Shown: positions 19,824 to 40,382, counted from the first letter of the stretch. The stretch: DNA of 40,589 nt from PVC group bacterium (GCA_043804695.1 JAZDIV010000036.1:1-40589); one strand, 5' to 3'. Program-made: numbers and translations. The notes: a model not told the origin generated them from the sequence alone.

Positions 19824-19868
19824 CAGATTATTGAATGCATCGATACCCGTTCCGGCATTTTTCAAAAC

Positions 19869-22268: not shown

Positions 22269-22455
22269 AATCAGAGGTATCTTATTCCCCCCTTCATTGA
22301 AATAACCCCGATTAAAACCACCAAGGTCACGAAGTACACGCTTGCGCGCCGAAGCGCTTCAGCGCGCAGGCTTGAAGAAAAATTAATAAAATCAATACGA
22401 TTTCGCTCTTTTTTAATTCTTCAGGTCCTTCATGTTCTTCATGATGAATATTCCC

Positions 22456-22854
22456 TTATTCAACGAGCTCCAGGGCCCCGACCGGGCAGGTCTCGACACA
22501 GACCCCGCACTGCAGGCAGATCACGGCCCCGATCCGGGGATGGAACTTGATCCCTTCGTACGGGCAGACCGTGACGCAGATGCCGCAGGCGGTACACTTC
22601 TTACTGTCGATCCGCACCGACCCGTTCTTTTCGGAGATGGCGCCTTCCGGGCAGGCTTTCAGACAGGGCCGCTCCCGGCACTGGACGCAGACGGCCATCC
22701 GGGTCTTGGTGTCGGAGATCCGGTCGATCTCCAGACGGGCTTTTTTGGGGTTATTCACCTTAAAGAAGGTGAAGGCGCAGATCATCTGGCAGCTCCGGCA
22801 GCCGGAACAGAGATCGCTCTTGTGGATCAGGTGTTTCATAATGTAGTGCTCCAT
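22456..22854 (-). CDS. Four-[4Fe-4S] ferredoxin subunit (AorA/DmsB-like)
   Basis: CSGCRSCQMIC, CVQC..RPC..ACP, CTACGICVTVCP, CLQCGVCVETCP. The start may be the ATG at 22839. Confidence 0.9.
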   Translation of the reverse strand: MEHYIMKHLIHKSDLCSGCRSCQMICAFTFFKVNNPKKARLEIDRISDTKTRMAVCVQCRERPCLKACPEGAISEKNGSVRIDSKKCTACGICVTVCPYEGIKFHPRIGAVICLQCGVCVETCPVGALELVE

Positions 22855-22912
22855 GATAATTATAGGAGTCAGAAGAAAGAGAATCGGGAAAGCCTTGTGT
22901 TCATTCTGACTC

Positions 22913-24778
22913 CTATTTCTTATACAGCTCCTCCTTCACGTCCTCCAATCCAAGTGCATCCAGGGTCACCGGCCTGATTAATCCGTTCTTATCATAACCC
23001 CAGAGCCGGTAGTAATCGTCGAGCATCACGTCGAGATGGACCACCTGGCCTTTGGCGGGACCTTCATCCTCCGGTTCTTTCAAGAAGCGATCCGACAGGG
23101 TGTCGTCCTTCCGGCTCATCCCCTCCCGCTGGTTGAACGCCCTCCTGAGGACACAGATCCGCTTCCCGATTCTTTTCAGGTTCTCCTCGTCATTGAACGC
23201 TTCCACCCCGGTCAGGCTGAAGAGAATGTCGGGGAAGTCGGGATAGTAATAGCAGAGTGGGTACATGGTGCCGTACTTGCAGAGGATCAGGGAGTCGACC
23301 ACGGCGTAAAAATGCTCCACGTCGTATACCATCTGCCCCTTGAATTCTTCGCTGTGCCGGTCAAGCGCGTTTTTGAGCTTGTCCTCCCCGTAGCGGCGGC
23401 GGCCGATCTCCGGGTAGCCGATCTCATCGATCACCGAGAGCCCGCGCAGATGGTCGGCGCCCCGGACCGAAGTGGCGTGGGTCAGCCCCCCCGAGCGGTG
23501 GGCCCGGCCATCCTGTCCGGATATTTCCTGGCCCTTGACGTGCATCGCGAACTTTTCCGCCCCGCCACCGATCTTTTTGGCGGCCCGCTTCACCCCCTCG
23601 GCCAAAAGATCGCCCAGCCCCTGGCGGTAAGCGATAGCTTTGACCAGCTGCACGATCTTCTCCCCGTCGGTCCAGTTCACTTCCTCCGGGATCAGACCGT
23701 GCTCGCGGCACTCCATGGCAAAACCGATCGCGCTCCCGCAGGAGATGGTGTCCATCCCCAGGTCGTTGCAGAGGTGGTTGGCGTAGATCAGGTCGTCGAG
23801 GTCGGAGTTCAGGCAGCCGGTCCCGAGCGAGACGACTGTCTCGTACTCCGGCCCTTCGCCGATGTTGTCATACTTTTTGGAGAGGGTGACCAGCTTGCAC
23901 TGGATCTTGCAGTTGAAGCAGGAGTTCTTGGCGATCCGGAACTCGTCCCGGATCCGGGCCGAGCCGACCTTTTCCACCAGGTCAAAGACCCCCTTCTTGT
24001 GGTTCCGGGTGGGAAGCCGCCCGATCTCGTTCTCGATCTCGACCAGGCCGGCCGTACCGAACTCCCGGAGCGAAAGGCAGCCGGCGGAGTCCGGTCCCTC
24101 GAGAAAACGGTATTTTGACTCCTGAAAAAGTTCACCGAGACGCTTCGGGTCGGCCGCGGTGATGTCCCCGGTTCCCCGAACCGCGATCGCCTTCAGGTTC
24201 TTGCTCCCCATCACCGCCCCCAGCCCCGAGCGCCCGAAGGCCCGGTGCTTGTCGGTCATCACGGCGGCGAACCGGACCAGGTTTTCCCCGGCCGGGCCGA
24301 TGCAGGCCACCCGCTCGAGCGAATATTTGGTCCGCAGACAGTCGGTCGTCTGGTTGACGGTCTTCCCCCATATCTCGGACGCGTCTTGAAGCGTGACCTG
24401 GTCGTCGATGATCAGGAGATAGACCGGCTTCTCCGACCGCCCCTCGAAGACTATGAAGTCGTAGCCGGCGTATTTCAACTCCGGGCCGAGATGCCCTCCG
24501 CAGTGCGCCTCCGCCCATCCCCCGGTCAGCGGCGATTTGGCGGCCATCATGCAGCGCCCGCTCTGGGGAAAGAGGGTCCCGGTGGTCGGACCGGTCGCCA
24601 GGATGAGGATGTTTTCGGGAGAGAGGGGATCGATCCCGGGCTTCAACTCGTCCCAGAGGATCCGGGCGCAGATGCCGGTCCCTCCGATGTATTCGATCAG
24701 GTTTTCGGGAAACGGCTTTTTCCTGATCGATCGGTCGGTCAGATTGATCCTGAGATAATGTCCGGCGTATCCGTGCAT
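22913..24778 (-). CDS. aor: Aldehyde:ferredoxin oxidoreductase family (W-bis-pterin), copy 1
   Basis: KSPLTGG, CIGPAGENLV, GRSGLGAVMGSKNLKAI, CFNCKIQC, GPEYET, GMDTISCG, RGADHL, DSLILC. SD AAGGAG. Confidence 0.93.
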   Translation of the reverse strand: MHGYAGHYLRINLTDRSIRKKPFPENLIEYIGGTGICARILWDELKPGIDPLSPENILILATGPTTGTLFPQSGRCMMAAKSPLTGGWAEAHCGGHLGPELKYAGYDFIVFEGRSEKPVYLLIIDDQVTLQDASEIWGKTVNQTTDCLRTKYSLERVACIGPAGENLVRFAAVMTDKHRAFGRSGLGAVMGSKNLKAIAVRGTGDITAADPKRLGELFQESKYRFLEGPDSAGCLSLREFGTAGLVEIENEIGRLPTRNHKKGVFDLVEKVGSARIRDEFRIAKNSCFNCKIQCKLVTLSKKYDNIGEGPEYETVVSLGTGCLNSDLDDLIYANHLCNDLGMDTISCGSAIGFAMECREHGLIPEEVNWTDGEKIVQLVKAIAYRQGLGDLLAEGVKRAAKKIGGGAEKFAMHVKGQEISGQDGRAHRSGGLTHATSVRGADHLRGLSVIDEIGYPEIGRRRYGEDKLKNALDRHSEEFKGQMVYDVEHFYAVVDSLILCKYGTMYPLCYYYPDFPDILFSLTGVEAFNDEENLKRIGKRICVLRRAFNQREGMSRKDDTLSDRFLKEPEDEGPAKGQVVHLDVMLDDYYRLWGYDKNGLIRPVTLDALGLEDVKEELYKK

Positions 24779-24886
24779 AATGGAACTCCTTACTGTAAAA
24801 GTGCCTGGACTAAACTTAGCCCTCGCGCATACCTGTAATGTTGTTTAATGCTTGCACATTCTTATTTTTCCGGAGGAAAAATAAGA

Positions 24887-25162
24887 TTATCCTCCCGCCA
24901 CGGACGGGAAGATCGTGACGCTCTCTTCTTCGCCCACCACTCTGCCCGGATCGGTCTGGGAGACTCCGTTGATCAATATGACAACCGGGGGGCGGCGGAC
25001 CATTTCGCCGTCTCTTGTTTCCAGGAGCAGTTCCCCGATCGGGGAACCGTAAACAGCGGCCAGGTGCTTCAGGATCTCCAGGATCGTCTTCTTCCCGGAG
25101 ATCGAGACCCGGCCGGTCCGGGCCCGGTCTCTGAGCACTCCGAATAACTTGACCGTGGGCAT
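24887..25162 (-). CDS. Ubiquitin-like MoaD/SAMP-type protein (C-terminal VAGG)
   Basis: TVKLFGVLR...VVILING...VTIFPSVAGG. Confidence 0.88.
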   Translation of the reverse strand: MPTVKLFGVLRDRARTGRVSISGKKTILEILKHLAAVYGSPIGELLLETRDGEMVRRPPVVILINGVSQTDPGRVVGEEESVTIFPSVAGG

Positions 25163-25171
25163 TTCCGGCTC

Positions 25172-25408
25172 CTACCCCCCTCCCAGCCGCATGGTTACCT
25201 GAAGCTCCGCATCCCCGGTAATCACATCATCGAGATGCATCGGACGTCCGGCCCGGATAATCTGGATAAACCCCAGCTCCTTCGACGTGTAACCGAGAGC
25301 TTTCCCCAGAACAGTCCGGACCCTGATGCCTTTACGGCATTTCCATTCGACCAGTCTTCCGGCCGGGGGCAAACGAAGCGGTCCGATCAATCGAAGGCGA
25401 ATTATCAT
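25172..25408 (-). CDS. Divergent, basic MoaD/ThiS-like protein (C-terminal LGGG)
   Basis: 78 aa, beta-grasp-like pattern, ends MRLGGG, sandwiched between two other ubiquitin-like genes. Confidence 0.7.
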   Translation of the reverse strand: MIIRLRLIGPLRLPPAGRLVEWKCRKGIRVRTVLGKALGYTSKELGFIQIIRAGRPMHLDDVITGDAELQVTMRLGGG

Positions 25409-25431
25409 GACAGCGTGACGATCCGAGCGGC

Positions 25432-25677
25432 TTACCCTCCGGCCACGATGGGGATGAAAGCGATCCGATCGCCGTCTTGAAGGGGCACATTAAAATCCTT
25501 CACCATCGCCGAATTGCGGGTAATCTTGATGTTTTTATGTTCGGCCACGTCCAGCCCGTACTCGGTTTTGACCCAATTTAGAAACTCAGGAAGAGTGGTC
25601 CCGAGAAAGTCAACCTGGTTGCTCCGCGCCGGGAAATAGCGCTGGAACTTGCTGATGGCGATTACAGTTATTTTCAT
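25432..25677 (-). CDS. MoaD/ThiS-like sulfur carrier (C-terminal VAGG)
   Basis: ...LQDGDRIAFIPIVAGG. Confidence 0.88.
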   Translation of the reverse strand: MKITVIAISKFQRYFPARSNQVDFLGTTLPEFLNWVKTEYGLDVAEHKNIKITRNSAMVKDFNVPLQDGDRIAFIPIVAGG

Positions 25678-25740
25678 AAGACATTACCTGTTCCATACCA
25701 TAGAGAATGAGTTGATGGTATCAATTGTATTGACACTAGT

Positions 25741-25955
25741 TAAATTCCAAATAACAAATTACAGATAACAAATAAATCTCAATGACCAAAATGCCAAATT
25801 CCAAACATCCTTCATCTGCAGTCACTGCGAGCAGTGGAAATAGCACAATAAATCATCATCTTTTTAGAAAGAATAATTCCGGCTGGTTTGCCAGGGGCGT
25901 TTGGTGCTTGGGATTTGGAATTTGTTTAGTATTTAGATATTAGGATTTAGGATTT
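25741..25955. repeat. Inverted heptamer arm element, homologous to 16961-17195
   Basis: Left arm TAAATTCCAAATAACAAATTACAGATAACAAATAAATCTCAATGACCAAA...CCAAAC (25741-25806) and a complementary right arm at 25899-25955. Confidence 0.75.
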
Positions 25956-25959
25956 GTAT

Positions 25960-27816
25960 TTATACGGATATCCCCAGCTCTTCTAATTTCTCCGGTGTTG
26001 GTCGTCCGTCCTCTCCCCACCCTCTCACCTCGTAATAGCGGGGGAGCATTTTGTCAAGCTCGACCACCTGCCCTTTGGCCGGCCCTTCCGGGAGCGGCTC
26101 TTGCAAAAACCGCTTCGGGAGCGAGTCCTGGGCGGGGGTCAGACCGCAGGCGACGTTAAAAAGCCTTTCCACGTTCAGGATCCGCTCCCCCGCCTTCATA
26201 ATCTTCTTCTCATCCCACTCGATCCCGGTGGCGTATTTGATCAGCTCAGCCATGTCTTGCGGAAGAATGGCGTAGGTGGCGAACATGCAGTACTTGCACA
26301 TCTCGGCGGAATCAACCACGGCGGCGAAGTTTTCATGCCAGAGGACCATGTCGGCCTTCCCCTGCCAGGCGTAGGGATCGACGGTGTGGGGGTCCCCGAA
26401 CCACTCCACCCCTTCCTCCGGGGTATAACTGAGAAGTTCGAAGTTGGGGAGCGCCCGGAGGTGATCTCCCCCCCGGGAAGCCACCGCCAGACCGAGGCCG
26501 AACCCCTTCCCGGTTCGGGGGTCGTAGGCGGGCAGTTCCATCCCCTTGGTCTGGAGCGCGAAGTCGATGCTCCCCTGACCGATCTTCCCGGCCAGGTATT
26601 TCATCCCCCGGGCGGCGTCATTCCCGATCCCTTCCCGAAAAGCGATTTTTTTCACCAGGTCGATGACGGCATCCGCGTCACCCCAGTGATATTTTTCGGG
26701 GATCAGCCCCTTTTCGCTGCATTCGAAGAGGAAGCCGATAATCCCCCCCACCGAGATGGTGTCCATCCCGTAATCGTTGCAGAGATAGTTGGCATAGATA
26801 ACCGGGGCCAGATCGGGGAGGTCGGGCCGGGTGCCCAGCGCGACAAAGCTTTCGTACTCCGGGCCCTTCCCCCGGCAGAGAAACTTCCCCTCTTTGACCA
26901 CCGCGTAATTCGAACAATGGATGATGCAGGAGAAGCAGCTCTCCGAACGCTCCACGAAATTCTCCCGGTAATGGTGGCTGCTGTAATTATCGGCGTGGCG
27001 GAAGACCCCGGTCTGGCCGTTCCGGGTGGACAGCCCCCCGCTCTCGGCGGCGATGTCGGTGATCACCGAGGTGCCGTAATAGGAAAAATCGGGGTAGGTC
27101 TTGTCTTCAAAGATCTTCCGGTAGCAGTCCGCGGATTTTTTCAGAAAAGCCTCCGGATCGAAGAGCTTCAGATCATGGGTCCCGTTGATCGCGATCGCCT
27201 TCAGCTTCTTCGACCCCATCACCGCCCCCACCGCGCAGCGGGCAAGATAATGGAACTTGTCGTTGGCGATCGCCGCGCAGAAGACCATCTTCTCCCCGGC
27301 CGGCCCGATACAGGCCACCTTGGTCTCTCTTCCCAGCCTCTCGACCAGCTTGTCGGTGGTCTCCATCACTCCTTTCCCGGCCAGATCGCCGGCGGCCAGA
27401 ATCTCCACCTCGTCATCGCGGATGTTGAGATAGACCAGTTCGTCGGCCCTGCCTTCCACGATGATGACGTCATACCCCGCGTACTTGATCTCCGCTCCGA
27501 AGGCCCCGCCGCTGTTGGCGTCGCCGAAGAGGCCGGTCAGGGGAGACTTGGTAGTCACCGTGTAGCGCCCCGAGGAAGGAGACACGGTCCCGTTCAGCGG
27601 CCCGGTGGAGAAGATGAGAACATTATCCGGTCCCAGGGGATCGATTTTGCCCGGGTCGTCGAGCAGGTCGGAGAGTAGCCGGGCGCCGAATCCTCTCCCC
27701 CCGATATAGTTCTCCATCAGCTCCCGGGGCAGCGGTTCCCTGGAAATCCTGCCGGTGGTCAGGTTAACCCGGAGAATCCGCCCCATGTATCCGTAATGGT
27801 TATCTTTTTCAGCCAT
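25960..27816 (-). CDS. aor: Aldehyde:ferredoxin oxidoreductase family (W-bis-pterin), copy 2
   Basis: GYMGRILRVNL, KSPLTG..GDANSGG, GAVMGSKKLKAI, CFSCIIHC, GPEYES, GMDTIS, YDPR, RGGDHL, DSAEMC. Confidence 0.93.
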   Translation of the reverse strand: MAEKDNHYGYMGRILRVNLTTGRISREPLPRELMENYIGGRGFGARLLSDLLDDPGKIDPLGPDNVLIFSTGPLNGTVSPSSGRYTVTTKSPLTGLFGDANSGGAFGAEIKYAGYDVIIVEGRADELVYLNIRDDEVEILAAGDLAGKGVMETTDKLVERLGRETKVACIGPAGEKMVFCAAIANDKFHYLARCAVGAVMGSKKLKAIAINGTHDLKLFDPEAFLKKSADCYRKIFEDKTYPDFSYYGTSVITDIAAESGGLSTRNGQTGVFRHADNYSSHHYRENFVERSESCFSCIIHCSNYAVVKEGKFLCRGKGPEYESFVALGTRPDLPDLAPVIYANYLCNDYGMDTISVGGIIGFLFECSEKGLIPEKYHWGDADAVIDLVKKIAFREGIGNDAARGMKYLAGKIGQGSIDFALQTKGMELPAYDPRTGKGFGLGLAVASRGGDHLRALPNFELLSYTPEEGVEWFGDPHTVDPYAWQGKADMVLWHENFAAVVDSAEMCKYCMFATYAILPQDMAELIKYATGIEWDEKKIMKAGERILNVERLFNVACGLTPAQDSLPKRFLQEPLPEGPAKGQVVELDKMLPRYYEVRGWGEDGRPTPEKLEELGISV

Positions 27817-27819
27817 TTT

Positions 27820-28236
27820 TCACCCCAGGTGATTAATATCTTCTTTGCGGAGAGTGAGGGCGTCGGTCGGGCAGTACTTCGCGCACTGCGGGTCGCCGCC
27901 GCAGAGATCGCACTTGAGGAGCTCGCCGTCGAAGATCCGGAGCGCGCCCGCCAAGGGACAGGCCTCGATACAGGAGCCGCAGACGATACACTTCTCGCGG
28001 TCGTGGACCGCTCGGCCGTCCTCGATGTGCATCGCTCCGGTCGGACAGACTGCCACACATTTCGGATCCTTGCAGAAGCGGCAGGTCTCGATGACATCCC
28101 GGTCCTCTTCCCGGTACACCCGGATCCGGGAGCGCTGCGGATTGATCAGGCTGCAGTGCCTGAGCGAGCAGACCAGCTCACAGATCCGGCAGCCGACGCA
28201 TTCTTTCTGATTGATCTTCCTCGGGTCGGAAGACAT
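27820..28236 (-). CDS. Four-[4Fe-4S] ferredoxin subunit (AorA/DmsB-like)
   Basis: CVGCRICELVC, CRFC..PKC..VCP, CIVCGSCIEACP, KCDLC.GDPQC..YCP. SD AGAGGTG. Confidence 0.92.
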   Translation of the reverse strand: MSSDPRKINQKECVGCRICELVCSLRHCSLINPQRSRIRVYREEDRDVIETCRFCKDPKCVAVCPTGAMHIEDGRAVHDREKCIVCGSCIEACPLAGALRIFDGELLKCDLCGGDPQCAKYCPTDALTLRKEDINHLG

Positions 28237-28500
28237 GAGACACCTCTTTCAGGTTAAAACTGTCCTGAAGAACAGAAGCCGTATTTTAACCAACCCTGCC
28301 GACATAAAAACACAGAAATAGAGTAATTTCAAGGGGGAAATACACGCGGGACAGATGAACATCGAACATTCAACGTTCAACGTCAAACGTTCAACGCACT
28401 GGCAGGGGGACTTATGTGATTTTTGCGCCTTTTTGCGGCTAATAAAAGGGGCCGAGGTAGGGGGATAATCAGTGTGAATTCGTGTAATTAGTGGACTGCT

Positions 28501-30825
28501 TTACCCGCGTTCCCGGAGCTGGACGGCTTCCAGGACCTTTTCCGGCGTGAAGGGGGTGCGGTGGAGACGGACATCGACCGCGTCGTAGATGGCGTTGGAG
28601 ATGGCCGGGAGGGGACCGCTGATGCAGATCTCCCCCACGCTCTTGGCGCCGAAGGGACCGGTCGGCTCATAGGAGGGGACGAAGATGGTGGTGATTTTGG
28701 GGATGTCCCGGGCGGAAAAAATCTTGTAGTACCCGTAGTTGGGATTCAGCATCACGCCCTTGTTGCTGTAAATGTGGCGCTCGGTGAGGGCGTAGCTGAT
28801 CCCGTTGATCAGGGCACCGATCGCCTGTCCCCGGGCCAGGTCGGGATTGATCGGCGTGCCGCAGTCAACCGCCTGAACGTATTCCAGGACCCGCACCTTG
28901 CCGGTGGCCCGGTCCACCTCCACCTCCACGAAATGGGCGGCAAAGGGCGGGGGCGACTCGCGGGAGATCCGGGACGCCGTCGCCGCGATCTGGAACTGGT
29001 CTTTCTCGTAGAGGGAGCGGGTGCCGATCTCCTCCAGGGTCACCGATTTCTTCTTCGGCCCGATGACCCTGCCCCCGGTCAGCTCGACCCTCTCCGGGGG
29101 GACATTGAGCATCGCCGCCCCGACCTGGAGAATCTGCGCTTTCACCTTCTCGGCGGTGTCCTTGACCGCCATCCCGGAAAGATAGGTGGTGGAGGAGGCG
29201 TAGGCTCCCACGTCGAAGGGGGTGAGGTCGGTGTCGGAGGAGTAGACGATGACCCGGTCGGTCGGGACCGTCAGGACCTCGGCCGCGATCTGGGAGAGGA
29301 CCGTGTCCGATCCCTGGCCGATCTCGGTGGCCCCCATCAGGAGGTTGAACGACCCGTCATCATTCATCTTGATGAACGCGGACGCCATGTCGATATAGGG
29401 GATGGAAGACCCCTGCATCATGATCGACATCCCCAGGCCGCGCCGGTAGCGCCCTCCCCCGGGCCGGCCCCGTTTCTTCTTCCAGCCGATGGCCTCGGCG
29501 CCGGCCGTGATGCAGGCGGCCAGCTCACAGGATCCGATATGAGGCTCTCCGATGGCCGGGCCTTCGCCGAGCTCCTTCAGGATCGGCACCTCGGTCCCGC
29601 CGGCGATGACGTTCTTCAGATAAAAATCCATCGGGTCCATTTCCAGCCTTTCGGCCAGGTCGTCCATGGCGATGACGGTGGCCAGGATCCCCTGGGTCCC
29701 CCCGTAGCCCCGGTAGGCGCCGGAGACCGGGAGGTTGGTATACACCACGTCGCTGCTGAAGCGAAGGTTGGGGCACTTGAACATCGGCAATGTCCGGGTT
29801 CCCACGTTGGAGGCCACGGTCAGGCCGTGGGTCCCGTAGGCGCCGGTGTTGGAGAGGGCGTAGAGGTCGATCGCGGTCAGGGAGCCGTCTTTCCGGGCCG
29901 CCACCTGGACCTTGGTAATCATGTTGTGACGGACCCGGGCGCTCATGAAGACTTCCCGGCGGGTCAGGCGCATCTTGGCCGGGCGCCCGGTCCGGAGGGT
30001 GATCAGGCCGACGTAGGGCTCCAGCAGTATCTCCTGCTTCCCCCCGAACCCTCCTCCCAGCCGGGGCTTGATGACCCGGATCCGGCGGCGGGGTATCTGT
30101 AAAGCCCGGCTGACAATCCGGCGGGCATGAAAGGGGACCTGGGTCGTGGAGATGATCACCAGGCGCCCGTTTTCATCCAGCCAGCTCAAAGCGCAGTGAG
30201 GCTCGATGGCCGAGTGGCTGGCGGTCTGGTTCTCGAATTCGTCTTCCACCGTCATCTCCGCCTGCTTGACGCCTTTTTTAACATCCCCCACGGAAGCCTC
30301 CACCCGGGCCACCCGGTTCTTCTCCGGCTCGTAGGGAACCGGGATCGCGATCCGGCATTCCTTTTCATCGTGGATCACCGGGGCGGAAGACCGCATCGCC
30401 TTTCTCGGATCCAGTACCGCCGGGAGCACCTCGTACTCCACCTCGATCAGCTTGAGGGCCTCTTCGGCGATCTCGTCCGTCTCCGCCGCCACCAGGGCAA
30501 CCTTGTCGCCGGCAAAACGGACCTTGTTGTCAAGAATGAACTCGTCGTAGGGCGACGGTTCCGGGTACCCCTGCCCTGCCGTTGTGATCGGGATCCGGGG
30601 GACATCCTTGTAGGTCAGCACCTCCGCCACCCCGGTGAGGGCCCGGGCCTTCCCGGTCCGGATAACTTTGATCCGGGCGTGGGCGTGGGGGCTGCGCAGG
30701 AGACGGCAATAAAGCATCCCCGGCATATCGTAATCATCCGTAAATTTCGCCTGCCCGACGGCCAGACCAAGGGCATCTACTTTGTCCACCCCCTTATTTA
30801 CTTGATTGAACTTAGGTAATTTCAT
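28501..30825 (-). CDS. Xanthine dehydrogenase-family Mo subunit, XdhD/YgfN-like
   Basis: TTAGQGYPEPSPYD, STTQVPFH, GGGFGGKQE, AYRGYG, GAYASSTT, GPFGAKSVGEI. Confidence 0.9.
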   Translation of the reverse strand: MKLPKFNQVNKGVDKVDALGLAVGQAKFTDDYDMPGMLYCRLLRSPHAHARIKVIRTGKARALTGVAEVLTYKDVPRIPITTAGQGYPEPSPYDEFILDNKVRFAGDKVALVAAETDEIAEEALKLIEVEYEVLPAVLDPRKAMRSSAPVIHDEKECRIAIPVPYEPEKNRVARVEASVGDVKKGVKQAEMTVEDEFENQTASHSAIEPHCALSWLDENGRLVIISTTQVPFHARRIVSRALQIPRRRIRVIKPRLGGGFGGKQEILLEPYVGLITLRTGRPAKMRLTRREVFMSARVRHNMITKVQVAARKDGSLTAIDLYALSNTGAYGTHGLTVASNVGTRTLPMFKCPNLRFSSDVVYTNLPVSGAYRGYGGTQGILATVIAMDDLAERLEMDPMDFYLKNVIAGGTEVPILKELGEGPAIGEPHIGSCELAACITAGAEAIGWKKKRGRPGGGRYRRGLGMSIMMQGSSIPYIDMASAFIKMNDDGSFNLLMGATEIGQGSDTVLSQIAAEVLTVPTDRVIVYSSDTDLTPFDVGAYASSTTYLSGMAVKDTAEKVKAQILQVGAAMLNVPPERVELTGGRVIGPKKKSVTLEEIGTRSLYEKDQFQIAATASRISRESPPPFAAHFVEVEVDRATGKVRVLEYVQAVDCGTPINPDLARGQAIGALINGISYALTERHIYSNKGVMLNPNYGYYKIFSARDIPKITTIFVPSYEPTGPFGAKSVGEICISGPLPAISNAIYDAVDVRLHRTPFTPEKVLEAVQLRERG

Positions 30826-30891
30826 TGATCTTTATGTTTATGATGGTTAAATCCCAAATAACAAATTTTAATTAGGTATCGACGTTGTCTG

Positions 30892-32625: not shown

Positions 32626-33087
32626 CTACTCCGCCACCGCCTTGATCGCCTCGACGATCTGGGTGTAGCCGGTACAGCGGCAGAGGTTGCCGGAGATGGC
32701 GATCCGGATCTCTTCTTCGGTGGGAGAGGGGTTCTGGTCGAGGAGAGCGAGGGCGCTCATGATCATGCCCGGGGTGCAGAACCCGCACTGGACGGCCCCG
32801 TGGTCGATGAAGGACTGCTGGATGGGGTGGATTCTGTCTTGATCGGAGAGGCCTTCGATGGTGACGATCTCACGCCCCTCGCACTGGCCGGCCAGGACCA
32901 GGCAGGAGTTGACAGCACGCCCGTCGAGAAGGACGGTGCAGGCGCCGCACTCGCCGATCCCGCAGCCTTCCTTGGTGCCGGTGAGACGGAGTACGTCCCG
33001 GAGGAGATCGATCAGGCGGAGATTGGGGGCGATCTTGAGGGAGTGTCTTTTGCCGTTAACGGTAATGGTGAGTTTATTTTGTTTCAT
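32626..33087 (-). CDS. [2Fe-2S] subunit (XdhC/CoxS-like)
   Basis: [32 protein letters not shown]. Confidence 0.94.
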
Positions 33088-33097
33088 GACTTAATAC

Positions 33098-33250
33098 GGG
33101 GGATAGAAGGGATTAGCAGGGAGGAGGATGGAAAAGCAAGGAATAGTACGGAACAGCACGGAAATCGCCAGCCTCTTCCCTGCTTTTCCCTGCTCATCCC
33201 CGCTGCTCCCTGCTCATCCCTGCTGCTCCCTGCTGCTCCCTGCTTTTCCA
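33098..33250. repeat. Inverted decamer arrays (GGGAGCAGCA / TGCTGCTCCC)
   Basis: A degenerate left arm at about 33098-33165, and about 7 TCCCTGCTGC-like units at 33176-33250 overlapping the end of the FAD subunit gene. Confidence 0.75.
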
Positions 33251-34102
33251 CGCTTCTTTCAACGCCCTGGCTGTTAATGCTTCGATGACCGGTTTCTTGT
33301 AAGGGGTCGACCAGCGGATGCCGGAACGGGCGATCATCTCGCCGGAGACCGCTTCCCCGGCCTGCCGGAAAAGCTCCTCAGATGGTTTTTTACCGATCAG
33401 CAGTTTTTCCGCGGCCGTGATCCGCTCCGGCATCGGCGTCGTGCTTCCCGGGGAGATCCGCGCTTCGACAATGGCATCGCCGTTCAGAACGAGGATTACG
33501 GCCACATTCATCCGGGAGATGGCCAGCGCGTTCCGCCTCCCCAGCTTAATAAAAGCGCTCCGCGCCCCGGGAGGGAGACGACGGAAGCGGACGGCGGTCA
33601 ACATCTCGTCGTCACCGGCATTGGTCTGGTACGGCTTGACGTAGATATCTTTGAGCGGGACAACGCGCTCCCCTTTCTTCGACCGGAAGACCGCCTCGGC
33701 ATCAAGCGCCACCAGAGCGGGAACACTGTCGGCCGCGGGGGAGGCGTTCATGATATTGCCCCCGATCGTGGCGATATTCCGGTGCTGGGCGGCGCCGACG
33801 GTGGAGCAGGCAGCCGCCAGGAGCGGCGCCTGCTCCCGAATGACCGGCGAGGTGTGTATCTCCCGGTGGGTGGTCCCGGCGCCGACGGTGATGGTCGTGC
33901 CGTCGTCTTCAATCCCCTTGATCTCGGCGATCGCGGAGATGTCGAGGACGTTCGCCGGACCTTTCTCTCCGGGGGCCAAGCCCCTCAGCTCAACCAGGAG
34001 ATCGGTCCCCCCCGCGATGATCTTCGAGTCTTCGCCGTTCTCCGCCAGAAAATCCAGCGCCGCCTCGAGCGATCCGGCTCTGACCAGGTTGAAGGAGATC
34101 AC
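33194..34102 (-). CDS. FAD-binding subunit (XdhB/CoxM-like)
   Basis: IAGGTDL, RNIATIGGNIMNASPAAD, KLGRRNALAISR. GTG start overlaps the upstream stop (GTGA). Confidence 0.92.
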   Translation of the reverse strand: MISFNLVRAGSLEAALDFLAENGEDSKIIAGGTDLLVELRGLAPGEKGPANVLDISAIAEIKGIEDDGTTITVGAGTTHREIHTSPVIREQAPLLAAACSTVGAAQHRNIATIGGNIMNASPAADSVPALVALDAEAVFRSKKGERVVPLKDIYVKPYQTNAGDDEMLTAVRFRRLPPGARSAFIKLGRRNALAISRMNVAVILVLNGDAIVEARISPGSTTPMPERITAAEKLLIGKKPSEELFRQAGEAVSGEMIARSGIRWSTPYKKPVIEALTARALKEAWKSREQQGAAGMSREQRG

Positions 34103-36402
34103 CGGTCCCTCCTTTTCGTCTTCACCAGCTTGCGGCCGAGAACAATCCGCTCCAGGTTGAGGGGAAGGTCGCGGATCCGCTTACCGGTGGCGTGAAAGAC
34201 GGCGTTGGCGATGGCGGGAGCGCAGAGCTCCGCGGTCGGCTCGGCGATGCACTTGGCCCCGTAAGGGCCGCACTTGTCCTCGTTCTCGAGGATAAAAGAA
34301 TGGATCCTGCCGACATCCATCGCGGTCGGGATCAGGTACTCGTCCAGGTTCATGGTCTTGGTAGCCCCGTCAACCAGCTCGACTTCCTCCAGAATCCCGT
34401 AGCCGATGGCAGTGGCCACGCCGCCGCAGATCTGCCCGCGGACCGCCTCCGGGTTGATGGCCCGGCCAACGTCGTGAGCGGCCCAAACCTCGCGGACGTT
34501 CACCTTCCCGGTCTCGGTGTCGACCTCAACCTCGGCGATCTGGCAGCCGTAAACATAGGTGAAGTAGGCGTCTCCCCTCCCCTTCTCCTCGTTCCACCAG
34601 ATGGGAGGCGAGACATGCCAGGCGAAGGATGAGAGGTTCATCCCGGCGGCGAGGGCCAATTTAACCGCCTCCCGGAAATCCACCGCCCGGGCGGGATCGT
34701 CCCTGGCCAGGATCTTTTCATCCGCGGCGATCAGGCCGGCGGGGGAAACCCCCAGTTTCTTGGCCGCGGCGGCGCAGAGCTTCTCCCGGACATCAATCGC
34801 CGCCTGGCGGACGGCCGATCCGCCCATGATGGTGGAGCGGGAGGCGACGGTGGGGCCGCCATCGGTGATGATCGAGGTATCGGTCGCCCGGTACTGGATC
34901 CGCTCGATGGGGACGCCCAGCTCGCCGGCCGCGATCTGGGAGAAGATCGTCTTCAGCCCCTGCCCCATCTCGACCAGTCCAGTGGTGAGGTCGATCGAAC
35001 CGTCGGAGTGGATCTTCACGATCGCCCCGGTCGCGTCCACCCCTTCCGCGCCCAATGCCACCCCACGGTAGGAACAGGCGAGGCCGATCCCGCGCTGGAG
35101 GCGGCGCCCGGCGTTTTCCCCCGGAAACCGTTGCCGCTTCTCCTCCCACCCGGCGGCCCGGGTGGTGACATCCAGTGCCTCGCCGACGCTGACGGTGTGA
35201 TCAAGCTTCTGCCCGGTGGCGGTGATGTCGTTGTCGCGGAGAATATTTTTCTTCCTGAACTCAAGCGGGTCCATCTTCAGCTCGGCGGCGATCTCGTCCA
35301 TCAAAGATTCGTAGGCAAAGGCGATCTGGGGGGAGCCGAAACCCCGGAAGGCCCCGGTGTAGGTATTGTTGGTATAGGCTCCGTAGATGTCGGTCCGGAC
35401 GTGGGGGACGCGGTAGGGCCCGGTGGCGTGGACGACCGACCGCCAGGTGACGAAGGGGGTCATGGAGGCGTAGGCGCCGCCGTCGGCCACGATCCTGATC
35501 TCCATCGCCGTGATGGTTCCGTCCCTCTTCACTCCGACTTTATAATCGAGGAAATAGGGATGGCGCTTGTAGCTCTCGAGGAGGGAGTCCTCCCGGGTGT
35601 TGGAGAGCATGACCGGGCGGCCGGTTTTGAGAGCGAGGAGCCCCGCCCGGCAGCTCAAGACCGACATGCAGTCATCTTTCCCCCCGAAGGAGCCCCCCAG
35701 GGATGACTGGACGATCCTTACCTTCGAGAGGGGGAGCCCGAGGACACCGGAGACGGCCGAGCGGATGTTGAATATACTCTGGTGGGATCCTTTTACGACC
35801 AGGGTTCCGTCCGGATCGACATCGGCCACCACCACCTCGGTCTCGATGTAGGCGTGGTCGACCCGCTGGGTGGAGTATGACCGTTCGATGACGCGGTCGG
35901 CTTCAGCGAAACCGGCCTCGACGTCTCCCTTCCGGGTCTTGTGGTGAGCGATCAGGTTGCCGCCAGCGTGAATCTCGGGGGCACCGGCTTCGAGCGCTTC
36001 CCGGGGGTCGAAGACGGCGGGGAGTTCTTCATAGGCGACCGTGATCAGCCCGACCGCCTTTTCGGCGATCTCTTCGGTCTCGGCGGCGACCACGGCGACC
36101 GCATCGCCCAGGTAGCGGACCCTGTCTTTGGCGATCGGCTGATTGTCGACGATGACGGCGCCAAAGGCGGGGTTACCCGGGATGTCATCGGCGGTGACGA
36201 CGGCGGCAACGCCCGTGAGCTTTTTCGCCCGGGCGATGTTGATCTTCCGGATCAAGGCGTGGGGATACCCGGCATGCTTCACTTTCGCGTAAAGCATCCC
36301 GTCCATCCGGAGGTCCTGCCCGTAGCGGGCGGCGCCGGTCACCTTCTCCCGGGCATCCACTCGAGGGGGGGAGGTGCCGATGATGTCAAGTCCGCTGGTC
36401 AT
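34099..36402 (-). CDS. Xanthine dehydrogenase-family Mo subunit (XdhA-like)
   Basis: RVDAREKVTGAARY, GGSFGGKD, KRHP, AFRGFGSPQ, EMGQG, TVASRST, GAKCIAEP. Confidence 0.92.
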   Translation of the reverse strand: MTSGLDIIGTSPPRVDAREKVTGAARYGQDLRMDGMLYAKVKHAGYPHALIRKINIARAKKLTGVAAVVTADDIPGNPAFGAVIVDNQPIAKDRVRYLGDAVAVVAAETEEIAEKAVGLITVAYEELPAVFDPREALEAGAPEIHAGGNLIAHHKTRKGDVEAGFAEADRVIERSYSTQRVDHAYIETEVVVADVDPDGTLVVKGSHQSIFNIRSAVSGVLGLPLSKVRIVQSSLGGSFGGKDDCMSVLSCRAGLLALKTGRPVMLSNTREDSLLESYKRHPYFLDYKVGVKRDGTITAMEIRIVADGGAYASMTPFVTWRSVVHATGPYRVPHVRTDIYGAYTNNTYTGAFRGFGSPQIAFAYESLMDEIAAELKMDPLEFRKKNILRDNDITATGQKLDHTVSVGEALDVTTRAAGWEEKRQRFPGENAGRRLQRGIGLACSYRGVALGAEGVDATGAIVKIHSDGSIDLTTGLVEMGQGLKTIFSQIAAGELGVPIERIQYRATDTSIITDGGPTVASRSTIMGGSAVRQAAIDVREKLCAAAAKKLGVSPAGLIAADEKILARDDPARAVDFREAVKLALAAGMNLSSFAWHVSPPIWWNEEKGRGDAYFTYVYGCQIAEVEVDTETGKVNVREVWAAHDVGRAINPEAVRGQICGGVATAIGYGILEEVELVDGATKTMNLDEYLIPTAMDVGRIHSFILENEDKCGPYGAKCIAEPTAELCAPAIANAVFHATGKRIRDLPLNLERIVLGRKLVKTKRRDR

Positions 36403-36461
36403 TGGCTTTTTGATTTTTCTTATTCATCAGTCGGATCGGTCGAATAGATAGCCGAGCCCCT

Positions 36462-38987
36462 CTAGTCTTCCTTCAGGGCCTTGGTTTCTTCCTCGTCACG
36501 GTCGCGGAGCGAGAGAGCCCCGGCGGGACAGAGGAAGGTGCACATGCCGCAGCCGATGCACTTTTCGGCGTCCGTCTCCGGGATCAGCTTGTCGTTAAGA
36601 CTGATCGCCAGGTACGGGCAGCGGGCACAGTTCCCGCAGTGGACGCAGAGGTCCTCATCCACGGTCGAGATCTGCTTGACCGGGGTCAGAGCCATGAAAT
36701 CGCGGATCGGCTGGGGGAGCGCGATCCCGATCAGGTCGGGGACGGAGGTGATTCCCCGGGCGGCCATCAGGTGGCTCAGCCCCGAGCAAAGTTCACTGAT
36801 AATCCCGTAGCCGTATTTCTCCACGATGGTGCAGAACTGGACCGTCTTTACCCCCAGGGCCAGGAAATGGGCGGCGGCCATGTAGCCCATCGGGCCGCCG
36901 TTCCCGGAGACATGGACATTGAGGTTGCCGACCTTGGCCAGGGTGAGGTAGTTGATGGGGGCGATGGCGGCGCCGCTCATCCCGACGACCGCGCCGTCCT
37001 CCCACTCCTCCTTGACCATCTTCCGGAAATCGAGGGAGGGAAAGGTGTTGCCGAGGGTGACGCCGGCTTTCTGTTCGGGATAGCGGGCGAAGACCTCCTT
37101 GATGGCGTTGATGATGGTGGTGATCTCGGTCACCGCCGGGGTAAGCTTGAAGAGCTTGGGGATATCGGGGTCGCTCACCTGGAGGACCCAGTCGATAATC
37201 TTGGCGGTGAGGGCGGCGTTCTGGGAGACGATATCCCCCTCGGTCCCCTCCCCGCCCTGGGGGCAGGAGAGGCTGTACTCGACCACCATCGCCCCGGCGT
37301 TCTCCAGCATTTTCGTATTGCTCTGCCAGGACTTCATGTCGCTCTCGTCGTTCCCGGTCACGTTCCCCCCGGTGGAGGCGCCGGTGAGACGGTCGGGATA
37401 GGCCTTGATCAGTTTCTCCACTTCCGGGCAGACCCGGTCGAGGCGATGGCCGGAGACGTTGTCACAGTTGGCAAAGGTGGAGGGATCGATCTGATACATA
37501 TAGGCGGCGGGGATATGGATCGCGGTGCCGGGGGAGAAGGCGGTCTTCATGATCCCGCCGGCCCAGCCGGCCTCGTAGGCTTTCTGCATCTGGTCGACGC
37601 CATCGCTGGGGGGCGCCGCCGAGAGAAGGAAGGGGTTGATGATCTTCCTCCCGAAGAAGTCGGTCACCAGCGAGACCGGGACCGGCTCATACCCGGGGAG
37701 AACCGCCGTGTTCTTGACCGGGTTCTCGATCACCGGTTCTTCTTGCCGGTTCAGTAAGGCGTCAATCTTCCCGGCCTCATTCTTGCCGGACGCCACCGCT
37801 TCCACCACGGTGGTGGGTCCGTTGACGACATCACCGGCGTAAAAGACGGCCGGGTTCTTGACCCGGGGATAGGTTGACCGGTTCCCGACCGCGATAATCA
37901 CCTGATCGACATCCTGCAGCAGCTCCCCCACCCCTTCCCGGGCGGCGATGCACTCGAGGCTGAAGCAGGCTTTCGGGGGGATGGTGACCTTGGTCACTTT
38001 CAAGGCCTTTACCTTCCCGTTCTCGGCGACGATCCCGGTTACCTGTGAACGGCCGTTCACATCGACACCTTCAGCGATCAGCTCCTTCCTCTCATCGTCG
38101 GTCAGTGCCATTTCTCCGAAGGTTTCCAGGGCGAACATGTCGACATAGTCCGCCCCCCTTTTGGCGACGGTCACGGCACAGTCGCAGGCGGTGGCGCCGC
38201 CGCCGATGACGGCAACCCGGCCCTTCATCGGATAGGCGTCCGGGTCGAGGAGATAATCCAGCGCCTGGACGGCCAGATTCTCGTTGGGGATACCCATGAC
38301 CACCGGCTCCCAGCGGCCGACCGCGACCAGCACGGCTTCATACCCCTGATCGAGAAGAGCGGCCGGATCGTCCACCGCCGAGCCGCACCTGAGCGAGATG
38401 CGCCCCAGGGAGAGGGCAAAATCGATGTCGGCTTTCAGCACATCGGGCCGGAGCCGGTAATCGGGGATGCAGCGGACAACGCCCCCCGCTTCCCGCTCTC
38501 TCTCGAAGATGTCGACCTGGTATCCTTGGCGGGCCAGCAGCGCGGCCGCGCCGAGGCCGGCCGGGCCGGCGCCGATCACGGCCACCTTCCTGCCGTTGGC
38601 CTTGACTTTCTCGAACTCCGGCATGACGCCAAACCGGCGGGCCTTCTGGATGATGGTGGCCTGGAGGGCGGGGATGTTGATCGGACAATCGAGGTTCTCG
38701 TGAACACAGGTTCCCATGCAGTGCCGGTCGGGGCAGACCATCCCGCAAATCCCCCCCAGGGGGTTGGCGGAGAGAATCAGGGCCGCGGCCCGCTGGATAT
38801 CAGACGGGCGTCCGCCCCGGGCGGCCATGATAAAGTCAGGGGGCGAGACATCGGCCGGGCAGCCGTTCCCGCAGGTTTCCCCCTCCAGGCAGCCGGTCCG
38901 GCAGGGCTTTTCTTCGCAGTACTCGCATCTCCACAGTTCATCTTCAAACTGAGCATCCGGCAGGATCAGGTCTTCGGTCAACTTCAT
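36462..38987 (-). CDS. Single-chain dihydropyrimidine dehydrogenase-like flavoenzyme (GltD/PreT + FMN barrel/PreA + 2x[4Fe-4S]), 841 aa
   Basis: ATG at 38987 after SD GGAGGAG. CEYC..PC, NPLGGICGMVCP, GAGPAGL, GGGATACDC, SAAPP, MKT, LSCP, KLTP, GNT, GMSG, SGNGG, TVQFCT, CVHCGNC, CIGCGMC..CP. Confidence 0.85.
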   Translation of the reverse strand: MKLTEDLILPDAQFEDELWRCEYCEEKPCRTGCLEGETCGNGCPADVSPPDFIMAARGGRPSDIQRAAALILSANPLGGICGMVCPDRHCMGTCVHENLDCPINIPALQATIIQKARRFGVMPEFEKVKANGRKVAVIGAGPAGLGAAALLARQGYQVDIFEREREAGGVVRCIPDYRLRPDVLKADIDFALSLGRISLRCGSAVDDPAALLDQGYEAVLVAVGRWEPVVMGIPNENLAVQALDYLLDPDAYPMKGRVAVIGGGATACDCAVTVAKRGADYVDMFALETFGEMALTDDERKELIAEGVDVNGRSQVTGIVAENGKVKALKVTKVTIPPKACFSLECIAAREGVGELLQDVDQVIIAVGNRSTYPRVKNPAVFYAGDVVNGPTTVVEAVASGKNEAGKIDALLNRQEEPVIENPVKNTAVLPGYEPVPVSLVTDFFGRKIINPFLLSAAPPSDGVDQMQKAYEAGWAGGIMKTAFSPGTAIHIPAAYMYQIDPSTFANCDNVSGHRLDRVCPEVEKLIKAYPDRLTGASTGGNVTGNDESDMKSWQSNTKMLENAGAMVVEYSLSCPQGGEGTEGDIVSQNAALTAKIIDWVLQVSDPDIPKLFKLTPAVTEITTIINAIKEVFARYPEQKAGVTLGNTFPSLDFRKMVKEEWEDGAVVGMSGAAIAPINYLTLAKVGNLNVHVSGNGGPMGYMAAAHFLALGVKTVQFCTIVEKYGYGIISELCSGLSHLMAARGITSVPDLIGIALPQPIRDFMALTPVKQISTVDEDLCVHCGNCARCPYLAISLNDKLIPETDAEKCIGCGMCTFLCPAGALSLRDRDEEETKALKED

Positions 38988-39164
38988 ACCAACTCCTCCA
39001 TTATATTTCGCCACAAAGACACCAAGTCACCAAGGAAAAGCAAAAAACATATAAAAATACCACACCTTTCCCATAGGGATTTCTTGGTGTCTTCGTGGCA
39101 ATCATTTGTAAATTATAGTAGAAAAAGTACGGTAACAAAAGAGAGAAACGCGGTCAAGAACTTG

Positions 39165-40382
39165 TTACTCGTGTTCCGGCTCGTCGGTCAGGATGACCCG
39201 GACCATTGCCCCTTTCCGGAGGGGACCCGCATTCGGGGGGATGACCATCAGGCCATCGGCGATGACGAGAGAACGGAGGATCCCCGACCCCTGCGGTCCG
39301 GTGGGGCGGACGGAATACCCCTCCCCTTCCCTGCTCACGGAGACCCGCACCAGGTGGGTCCGCTCCGTCCTCTCATCGCAATCCTCCAGCAAAACCGCCT
39401 CCACTTCCGGCTGGCGGAGCTTCTTCTTCCCCTGCATCTTCAGGAGGGCCGGCCGGACAAACTGGAGGAATGAGATCAAAACCGAGACCGGGTTGCCGGG
39501 GAGGCTGAAGACGGGAACGCCCTTCACCGCCGTGAAGGTGAGGGGCTTGCCCGGCTTCATCGCCACCTGCCGGATCAGGAGTTCCCCCCCCATCTCCCGG
39601 AGGGCTTCCCGGACCAGGTCGTACTTCCCGACCGAGACCCCCCCGGAGGTGAGCACCAGGTCGGTGGTGAGGGCCACGCTCAGTATTTTCTTCAGGTCCT
39701 CCTTCCGGTCGGGGGCAATCCCGAGGGTGGCCGGGATACCACCATATTGCCGGACGGCGGCGGCCAGGGAATACCGGTTGCAGTCCCGGATCTTCCCGGG
39801 GAGAAGATCCTCTTCGATATTCTGCAGTTCGTCGCCGGTACTGATGATCGTCACCCGGGGCGGCGGGATCACGGCCGCCCGGGGATACCCGAGCGCCGCC
39901 AGCATCCCGATCTCCTGGGGTCGAAGGACGGTCCCCACCGTGAGAACGATATCTCCTTTTTGAACGCTCTCGCCGACTTCCCGGACGTTCTCCCCCTCCG
40001 TTACCGCCTTCATGATCTCCACACCGGTTCCTTCCCGGGTGTCTTCCACCATCACCACCGCGTCGGCCCCGGCGGGCAGGGGAGCACCGGTCATGATCCG
40101 GATGGCCCGGCCCGTCTCCACCGTCGTCGGGGAGACCTGCCCGGCCGGGAGATCCTCCAGCACGGCCAGCGTGACCGGGTTTTCCGGTGAGGCTCCCCGG
40201 GTATCGGCGGCCCGGACCGCATACCCGTCCATGGCCGAATTGGCAAACGGGGGGATATTCTCCCGGGCGGAGATGTTTTCGGCCAGAACCCGGCCCGGGC
40301 AATCGGAGAGGACCAGCGACGTACTCTCCAGGGGCCGGATCCGATCCAGGATAATCGACAGTGCTTTTTCGATTGAGATCAT
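39165..40382 (-). CDS. moeA: Molybdopterin molybdenum(/tungsten) transferase
   Basis: PPFANSAMDGYAV, RIMTGAPLPAGADAVV.VE, STGDEL, SGGVSVG..D, MKPGKP, LPGNPVS, QGSG.L.SL. Confidence 0.96.
   Translation of the reverse strand: MISIEKALSIILDRIRPLESTSLVLSDCPGRVLAENISARENIPPFANSAMDGYAVRAADTRGASPENPVTLAVLEDLPAGQVSPTTVETGRAIRIMTGAPLPAGADAVVMVEDTREGTGVEIMKAVTEGENVREVGESVQKGDIVLTVGTVLRPQEIGMLAALGYPRAAVIPPPRVTIISTGDELQNIEEDLLPGKIRDCNRYSLAAAVRQYGGIPATLGIAPDRKEDLKKILSVALTTDLVLTSGGVSVGKYDLVREALREMGGELLIRQVAMKPGKPLTFTAVKGVPVFSLPGNPVSVLISFLQFVRPALLKMQGKKKLRQPEVEAVLLEDCDERTERTHLVRVSVSREGEGYSVRPTGPQGSGILRSLVIADGLMVIPPNAGPLRKGAMVRVILTDEPEHE

Follow-up and report, generated by a model that had tools for sequence, protein, structure and literature searches.

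The 2,8-dioxopurine (reductive uric acid) pathway was worked out in two preprints of 2025 (bioRxiv 10.1101/2025.05.19.654654 and 10.1101/2025.04.24.650524), with the order xanthine dehydrogenase (XDH), XdhD/DOPDH, YgfK or UacX, SsnA, HyuA, YgeY, YgeW/YqeA and YgeX. As described there, XDH yields urate, which XdhD/DOPDH reduces to 2,8-dioxopurine, YgfK then reduces the ring and SsnA opens it, and the characterised route has no aldehyde intermediate. Li et al. assigned to E606 of XdhD the orientation of urate for 2,8-dioxopurine formation, and proposed that YgfK is replaced in other organisms by an F420 enzyme or by UacX, a homologue of PydA, and that C. difficile has ferredoxin-dependent XdhD/UacX variants. 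Here we analyze a gene cluster in a 40,589-nt stretch of DNA from a PVC group bacterium (GCA_043804695.1, JAZDIV010000036.1; hereafter the window), in which genes for two Xdh-family trimers and for a reductase with the domain architecture of dihydropyrimidine dehydrogenase (DPD) lie beside genes for two tungsten-type aldehyde:ferredoxin oxidoreductases (AORs). We conclude that these are probably two unrelated units standing side by side, a purine redox module that represents a variant of the 2,8-dioxopurine pathway and a set of ordinary AOR modules.

Like the E. coli and C. sporogenes clusters, the window has XdhABC-like and XdhD-type enzymes adjoining a flavin/Fe-S ring reductase, with the xdhABC and ygfM-xdhD gene orders and with the loop and Glu characteristic of XdhD. 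It differs from them in that FeS and Mo genes stand in place of a single xdhD, the reductase is of another kind than YgfK, and moeA, a gene for a ubiquitin-like (Ubl) protein and an FMN reductase gene are attached. Compared with the known pathway, then, the locus offers a variant, whose new traits are the unfused XdhD, the different reductase architecture and the separation of the redox module from the hydrolytic genes. For the AOR genes, the nearest described system is aorABCDE of Aromatoleum aromaticum, where two MoaD-like genes are thought to mature the tungsten cofactor (PMC6365974), and Williams et al. reported that Ca. Tritonobacter lacicola and Ca. Erginobacter occultus have more than one AOR, and linked these enzymes to aldehyde detoxification.

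Two Xdh-family trimers and a DPD-architecture reductase

Proteins encoded in the window (Table 1) were compared with those of the E. coli K-12 purine locus. The molybdopterin subunit of the second trimer, Mo2, matched XdhD with 39% identity and 530 bits, against 450 bits for XdhA; FeS2 and Mo2 were collinear with residues 1 to 954 of E. coli XdhD, in which the two parts are fused, and the genes FAD2-FeS2-Mo2 follow the order of ygfM-xdhD, with XdhD unfused. Mo2 and E. coli XdhD share an 'LGEG' loop insertion, the Glu of which aligns to E. coli E606, while Mo1-type proteins and XdhA lack it. The loop and its Glu were present in all 10 Mo2/XdhD-type relatives aligned, the motif being identical in L007, L009, L010, L012, L032, L059, L064 and L070 (L numbers denote the related loci described below) and reading 'SEGR' in L068 and L074 from Chloroflexota. 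The score of Mo2 against TIGR03313 (629 bits) was below the cut-off of 1102, as expected of an unfused form.

The first trimer, Mo1-FAD1-FeS1, has the xdhABC order, and the best E. coli match of Mo1 was XdhA (32% identity, 356 bits), while FAD1 was 31% identical to XdhB and FeS1 49% identical to XdhC. The catalytic Glu is retained in both Mo1 and Mo2. Mo1 scored below the xanthine dehydrogenase cut-offs, with 583 against 784 for pucD and 550 against 780 for XdhA_XDHase. We also considered 4-hydroxybenzoyl-CoA reductase, the top Protein Data Bank (PDB) match of both Mo subunits, and rejected it: scores with its alpha model were 558 and 532 against a cut-off of 995, and those with its beta model 111 and 52 against 405, each in two stretches.

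The DPD-like protein aligned with pig DPD (PDB 1gt8) in three stretches (E 6e-56) and has the same domain order as that enzyme and bacterial PreT/PreA, in 841 aa rather than 1025 aa. It keeps a Cys aligned with C671 of pig DPD, which we take to be the catalytic Cys, as well as Asn at the positions of N609 and N736 and Thr at that of T737, whose roles we likewise presume. The position of pig N668 is occupied by Ser in this protein and throughout the aligned family. In an alignment of 23 family members, among them members of both the window's clade and the ssnA-linked one, the Ser-Cys active-site motif was invariant and the mean column identity was 71%.

Two known identities were rejected for this protein. 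YgfK was dismissed because the score with TIGR03315 was 152.7 bits against a cut-off of 835.3, in a match limited to the GltD-like part, and because E. coli YgfK is without a PF01180 domain; a true DPD of the Pyd pathway was dismissed because the neighbours in relatives are SsnA, YgeW, YgeY and YgeX, not Pyd genes. The score with PreA was 201.8 bits, with a cut-off of 335. With UacX of C. difficile (PF01180) the protein shares a DHO_dh/PydA-type FMN domain and two C-terminal [4Fe-4S] clusters, and ssnA adjoins the DPD-like gene in most distant relatives; by its published description, to which this comparison is confined, UacX lacks the FAD/NAD(P)H domain, whereas the window protein has a GltD/PreT-like N-terminal half. 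The network category 'UacX (PF01180)' of Li et al. would take in a reductase of this architecture, although the text of the two preprints, extended-data figures aside, does not mention a full-length one beside ssnA. The family is large and spread over many phyla, with 2587 proteins at E <= 0.001 among 8000 candidates scored and at least 586 confirmed stretches in species-representative genomes.

Neighbourhoods and phylogeny of the reductase

From these at least 586 stretches the best 80 loci were kept, comprising 10 closest (66-83% identity) and 70 distant ones (55-62% identity), and neighbouring genes were mapped by tblastn with at least 50% query coverage. Among the distant loci, ssnA occurred in the flanks of 44, ygeW of 12, ygeY of 11, hyuA of 7 and ygeX of 6, and in 40 of the 60 that had at least 1.5 kb of downstream flank, ssnA followed on the same strand at a distance of no more than 600 nt. 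One representative of each neighbour family was scored with NCBIfam, and SsnA (559 against a cut-off of 444), YgeW (637 against 453), YgeY (505 against 321), diaminopropionate ammonia-lyase (418 against 276) and D-hydantoinase all exceeded their cut-offs. Judged by these homologies, the neighbourhood in distant relatives matches the gene set of the 2,8-dioxopurine pathway. In some genomes a second reductase gene stands near the DPD-like gene: L049 has a YgfK-like gene together with ssnA (5649-6839), and L051 has a DPD-like paralogue, 29% identical and with an in-frame TAG, adjoining a hyuA-like gene (3376-5808).

A gene for an Xdh large subunit was found in 26 of the 70 distant and 7 of the 10 closest loci, in the latter always directly downstream of the DPD-like gene, and a moeA homologue preceded the DPD-like gene in 4 of the closest loci and in no distant one. 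L007 alone among the 80 has the gene order of the window as far as Fd1, where its contig ends. Upstream of moeA in relatives lie Rnf genes and a gene for GTP cyclohydrolase I (L001, L004, L005 and L008), or, in L002, unrelated housekeeping genes with thiL, an AIRS-family gene distinct from selD. Downstream, L001, L002, L004 and L005 have trpR-like, trpB-like, iorA/B and paaK genes. Amidohydrolase, xdhC, mocA, tupABC and sel genes, which the preliminary description of this DNA had named for inspection, did not appear in these flanks. In L004, only short fragments directly follow the DPD-like gene (12646-12978), covering 9% of Mo1 from its start and 29% of FeS1, as if an xdh trimer had been deleted; in L005 not even a remnant of xdh is left.

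The ring-opening genes were looked for in the window with E. coli proteins by tblastn, and, as the preliminary description had stated, ssnA, hyuA and ygeWXY gave no match; the same held for yqeA, mocA and the selenium-cofactor genes yqeB and yqeC, selD being outside this search. Neither ssnA nor hyuA, ygeW, ygeX or ygeY was found in the flanks of any of the 10 closest loci, so that the link to the lower pathway in the window's own lineage is indirect. A tree of the DPD-like proteins had 78 rows, with the partial L026, L052, L061 and L078 left out, and was rooted on a 29%-identical paralogue, which forms a long branch. In this tree the window and L001-L010 formed one 11-row clade (support 100), whose sister (support 99), made up of Verrucomicrobiota, Kiritimatiellota and Lentisphaerota, has 6 rows, 4 of them linked to ssnA; both nested on short branches inside ssnA-linked lineages.

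In addition, the 120 listed matches to a Kiritimatiellia SsnA included SsnA-named proteins from Ca. Aureabacteria (62% identity), a PVC-group bacterium (56%), Ca. Auribacterota (55%) and Ca. Euphemobacter frigidus (56%), the species to which L007 belongs. Williams et al. 2022 annotated diaminopropionate ammonia-lyase (DpaL, equivalent to YgeX) in Erginobacter and Euphemobacter metagenome-assembled genomes, on contigs distinct from those of L002 and L007, and listed nucleobase transporters; xanthine dehydrogenase, SsnA and hydantoinase are absent from their tables. The nesting in the tree, the occurrence of SsnA in the phylum and that of DpaL in these genomes argue against a changed function of the window's clade. 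Thus, the window probably holds the redox half of the pathway, the hydrolytic half of which would lie elsewhere in the source genome.

A probable purine redox module beside AOR genes

AOR1 and AOR2, which are 43% identical, both have AFOR_N and AFOR_C and fall into the classical broad-specificity AOR clade (9mqx, 1aor and 8c0z); by these domains and their closest characterised proteins they are predicted to be AORs sensu stricto. Fd1 and Fd2 matched the Fe-S subunits of solved AOR-family complexes. All three small proteins of this block end in Gly-Gly; UblA and UblC matched ThiS/MoaD models and UblB none, and a structure model of UblB (pLDDT 80) gave a beta-grasp fold, for which Foldseek returned ubiquitin, TtuB and SAMP1. 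The FMN reductase-family protein yielded only weak flavodoxin-fold matches in a PDB search, and from its Cys motif it is presumably akin to iron-sulfur flavoproteins. As in AorABCDE of A. aromaticum (PDB 8c0z), an AOR catalytic subunit, a four-cluster ferredoxin subunit and MoaD-like genes stand together, but the window has no gene for an AorC (FAD/NAD) subunit beside either AOR and has two diverged modules, the gene order of which is mirrored around the Ubl genes.

The preliminary description had treated the xdh/DPD and AOR genes as linked. However, such a linkage was almost wholly lacking in other genomes: no AOR gene was found in the flanks of any of the 80 loci, whether among the 70 distant or the 10 closest, and the units Fd1-AOR1-UblA and UblC-AOR2-Fd2 are confined to the window among them, except that L007 has Fd1 (80% identity) after Mo2, just before the contig end. 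In L009 and L010, UblB and the FMN reductase come immediately after the DPD-like gene and FAD2-FeS2-Mo2, and AOR genes are absent; in L008 the DPD-like gene is followed by UblB, the FMN reductase and a nifS-type cysteine desulfurase. Because they follow the DPD/xdhD genes in these three loci in the absence of an AOR, UblB and the FMN reductase were assigned to the Mo/DPD set, where they may act as a sulfur-carrier set for the Mo centre.

The reading that we hold to be probable is as follows. The first unit would join moeA and the gene of the DPD-like protein to the two trimers, Mo1-FAD1-FeS1 and FAD2-FeS2-Mo2; UblB and the FMN reductase probably belong to it as well. Its XdhABC-like trimer (Mo1) would oxidise hypoxanthine and xanthine, giving urate, and the XdhD-type trimer (Mo2, with the YgfM-like FAD subunit) would reduce this urate to 2,8-dioxopurine. 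The DPD-architecture enzyme would then take over the task of YgfK/UacX, reduction of the 2,8-dioxopurine pyrimidine ring, with NAD(P)H as donor and with FAD, Fe-S clusters and FMN as the electron path, while ring opening and the later steps (SsnA, HyuA, YgeY, YgeW/YqeA and YgeX) would be encoded elsewhere in the genome. The second unit would be two tungsten-type AOR modules, each with a poly-ferredoxin subunit and a MoaD-like maturation protein, oxidising fermentation aldehydes to acids with reduction of ferredoxin. The analysis shows the domains, the homology, the XdhD loop, the synteny of relatives and the occurrence of SsnA in the phylum; all substrates and electron donors named here are putative, as is the lower pathway in this particular genome.

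This reading keeps one part of the preliminary description and gives up another. The likeness to the E. coli xdhABC, ygfM-xdhD and ygfK locus was borne out by the sequence matches, the XdhD loop and the synteny of relatives, and purine as the class of the putative substrate by the same matches, the loop and the ssnA-linked relatives. The supposedly undescribed route, by contrast, corresponds to the 2,8-dioxopurine pathway already published in 2025, which has no place for the aldehyde oxidation step then proposed. The combination of molybdenum and tungsten enzymes in one route is not supported, given the lack of an AOR in the 80 loci, the AOR-free arrangement of L009 and L010 and the lack of an aldehyde intermediate.

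Several observations weigh against the two-unit reading. FAD2 was only 25% identical to YgfM (46.6 bits) and scored slightly higher against XdhB (51.6 bits, 21% identity), a weak and non-specific similarity. Neither Mo subunit reached any NCBIfam equivalog cut-off, and the DPD-like protein was below those of both PreA and YgfK. The nearest solved structure of Mo1 is 4-hydroxybenzoyl-CoA reductase, with nicotinate dehydrogenase also among the best, and Mo1 has Asp after the GGxFGxK motif where the E. coli proteins have Gln, so that the substrate of Mo1 is the least certain of those proposed. The cited pathway papers, as far as their text goes, report no assayed enzyme of this DPD architecture. 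The lower-pathway genes are missing both from the window and from the flanks of the closest loci. Finally, since all 16 genes are co-oriented and L007 has Fd1 after Mo2, co-transcription with the AORs may be possible.

A different account of the first unit would be that, in this Auribacterota-like lineage, the DPD-like enzyme and the Xdh trimer or trimers have shifted to a pyrimidine, a nicotinate-like or an indole-derived heterocycle. A shift of this kind would explain why ssnA is no longer adjacent, and it agrees with the absence of ssnA and other lower-pathway genes near the 10 closest loci, with the trp-, ior- and paaK-type neighbours of L001, L002, L004 and L005, with the structural proximity of Mo1 to 4-hydroxybenzoyl-CoA reductase and nicotinate dehydrogenase, and with L004, which keeps the DPD-like gene and only remnants of Mo1 and FeS1. 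Nevertheless, we regard it as unlikely, for the clade nests in the ssnA-linked family on short branches, the 23-member alignment is conserved throughout with its Ser-Cys motif unchanged, Mo2 keeps the XdhD loop and SsnA exists in the phylum.

Less probable still is that the AORs serve the purine module as electron partners, aldehyde oxidation supplying reduced ferredoxin for the four-electron reduction of urate, directly or via Rnf, with no shared carbon intermediates. The ferredoxin-dependent XdhD/UacX variants proposed for C. difficile by Li et al., the Rnf genes upstream of moeA in L001, L004 and L008 and the adjacency and common orientation of the AOR and Mo/DPD genes here speak for such a partnership, but the Mo2 trimer and the DPD-like enzyme have their own FAD/NAD(P)H modules and the AOR linkage is not conserved. 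About as improbable is the single route of 15 genes, in which Mo-dependent hydroxylation, ring reduction by the DPD-like enzyme and aldehyde oxidation to ferredoxin by the AORs would follow one another, since the co-orientation and short gaps of all these genes, the order of L007 and the position, amid or beside the AOR genes, of UblB and the FMN reductase, which L008-L010 tie to the xdhD/DPD genes, are outweighed by the 80 AOR-free loci, L009 and L010 (Mo2-UblB-FMN reductase) included, by the lack of an aldehyde intermediate in the characterised pathway and by the placement of both AORs in the broad-specificity clade. A tidy 'super-cluster' of molybdenum and tungsten enzymes can thus be an accident of gene neighbourhood, which calls for caution in predicting pathways from gene order alone.

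Returning to the two-unit reading, we tentatively extend it, with somewhat less than even confidence, to a joint proposal. The DPD-architecture protein of 830-850 aa could be a fourth class of 2,8-dioxopurine reductase, linked to NAD(P)H and separate from the classes of YgfK, the short ferredoxin-type UacX and the F420 enzyme. It occurs in at least 586 species-level genomes from many phyla and may be the form that prevails among uncultured environmental anaerobes. In Auribacterota, its redox module would stand apart from the hydrolytic genes and have a dedicated pair of Ubl protein and Fe-S flavoprotein, perhaps delivering a sulfur or selenium ligand of the Mo centre, and would act as a purine-fed electron sink beside ferredoxin-producing AORs. 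If the purine reading is true, anaerobic breakdown of urate and purines reaches beyond gut bacteria into many uncultured environmental phyla, and these organisms use a reductase architecture other than the two studied. This refines a known pathway rather than adding a new kind of system, and we rate its importance as moderate.

Gene layout, repeats and other features of the window

As summarized in Table 1, 16 co-oriented genes on the minus strand occupy 21546-40382. Fifteen of them had been listed in the preliminary description, whose order and orientation agreed with ours and whose labels were each backed by Pfam or NCBIfam; the FMN reductase is the sixteenth. Intergenic gaps are short, up to about 380 nt. 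For the DPD-like gene, the ATG at 38987 is the most likely start, giving the 841 aa of database entry P0001, rather than the GTG at 39014. The boundaries of FeS2 were revised to those in the table, so that the gene overlaps the end of FAD2. A promoter scan gave 8 promoter-like sites against 5.0 +/- 2.2 in shuffled sequence, and a terminator scan gave 20 terminator-like sites against 19.7 +/- 4.8; neither number stood out from the shuffled background.

Table 1. Positions of the cluster genes and hairpin elements in the window, and of the UblB-flavoprotein pair in related loci
Feature	Position	Strand	Basis or remarks
moeA (molybdopterin molybdotransferase), 405 aa	39165-40382	-	MoeA_N, MoCF_biosynth and MoeA_C domains
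DPD-architecture flavo-FeS reductase, 841 aa	36462-38987	-	Fer4_20 + Pyr_redox_2 + DHO_dh + 2x[4Fe-4S]
Mo1, Xdh-family molybdopterin subunit, XdhA/PucD-like, 767 aa	34099-36402	-	Pfam; NCBIfam pucD below cut-off
FAD1, XdhB-like FAD subunit, 302 aa	33194-34102	-	FAD_binding_5, CO_deh_flav_C
FeS1, XdhC-like 2x[2Fe-2S] subunit, 153 aa	32626-33087	-	Fer2, Fer2_2
FAD2, FAD subunit in YgfM position, 291 aa	31374-32249	-	FAD_binding_5, CO_deh_flav_C
FeS2, 2x[2Fe-2S] subunit, 165 aa	30892-31389	-	Matches N-terminal part of fused E. coli XdhD
Mo2, XdhD-type molybdopterin subunit, 774 aa	28501-30825	-	E. coli XdhD best match; XdhD loop
Fd1, poly-[4Fe-4S] subunit of AOR1, AorA-like, 138 aa	27820-28236	-	PDB 6x1o_B (WOR5 Fe-S subunit), AorA 8c0z_C, 9mqx_E
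AOR1, tungsten-type AOR, 618 aa	25960-27816	-	AFOR_N, AFOR_C; PDB 9mqx_D E 1e-146, 1aor E 1e-141
UblA, MoaD/ThiS-like, 81 aa, C-terminal GG	25432-25677	-	ThiS E 1e-10
UblB, beta-grasp, 78 aa, C-terminal GGG	25172-25408	-	No Pfam match; structure model and Foldseek
UblC, MoaD/SAMP1-like, 91 aa, C-terminal GG	24887-25162	-	ThiS E 4e-5; SAMP1 and moaD_arch models
AOR2, tungsten-type AOR, 621 aa	22913-24778	-	AFOR_N, AFOR_C; PDB 9mqx_D E 4e-133
Fd2, poly-[4Fe-4S] subunit of AOR2, 132 aa	22456-22854	-	PDB 9mqx_E, 6x6u_B, 8c0z_C
FMN reductase-family flavoprotein, 240 aa, CX2CX2CX5C motif	21546-22268	-	PF03358
Palindromic hairpin element, ~95 nt, copy 1	39005-39105		Between moeA and DPD-like gene; -44.6 kcal/mol, z = -8.4
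Palindromic hairpin element, ~95 nt, copy 2	21475-21575		Spans FMN reductase stop codon; z = -3.4
UblB-like (GGG end) + FMN reductase (CX2CX2CX5C)	L008:8174-10315; L009:16502-17346; L010:16518-17427		

The two hairpin copies have their stems in common and lie on either side of the stretch that runs from the DPD-like gene to the FMN reductase. Four occurrences of the motif AAGACACCAAGWCAC were counted in the window, where 0.06 are expected, in two inverted pairs with the same 63-nt spacing, and the core motif AAGACACCAAG was absent from all 81 fetched loci; the element may be a terminator, an operator or a REP-like repeat peculiar to this genome. At 33097-33257, the 10-nt unit TCCCTGCTNN is repeated in tandem in about 8 copies opposite its own inverted complement, forming a long imperfect hairpin (68-nt arms, 71% complementarity) over the 3' end of FAD1 and the FAD1-FeS1 gap, and it extends the FAD1 frame to 302 aa, as compared with 286-289 aa in L001 and L006. 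Just upstream of moeA, at 40456-40559, lies an inverted repeat of 33 nt, its arms 82% complementary and 38 nt apart.

At Rfam gathering thresholds the whole window gave only a tRNA (9480-9552) and no purine, xanthine or molybdenum cofactor riboswitch, and a permissive scan of 21400-40589 gave only sub-threshold miRNA-hairpin matches, which are due to repeats such as the TCCCTGCTNN region.

Outside the cluster, the minus strand at 12473-20619 encodes a CinA/MoCF_biosynth-like protein, an ArsP_2 permease, a thioredoxin reductase, a 6-phosphogluconolactonase, a DUF364 protein and a radical-SAM protein with weak MoaA/W-maturase similarity (37-41 bits against cut-offs of 284-380). Farther away, 12 kb from the cluster, a regulator of 1804 aa (3794-9208, minus strand) combines Ser/Thr kinase, AAA_16, TPR, GAF, sigma-54 activator and HTH_8 domains; the E. 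coli purine locus likewise has a sigma-54 regulator, YgeV.

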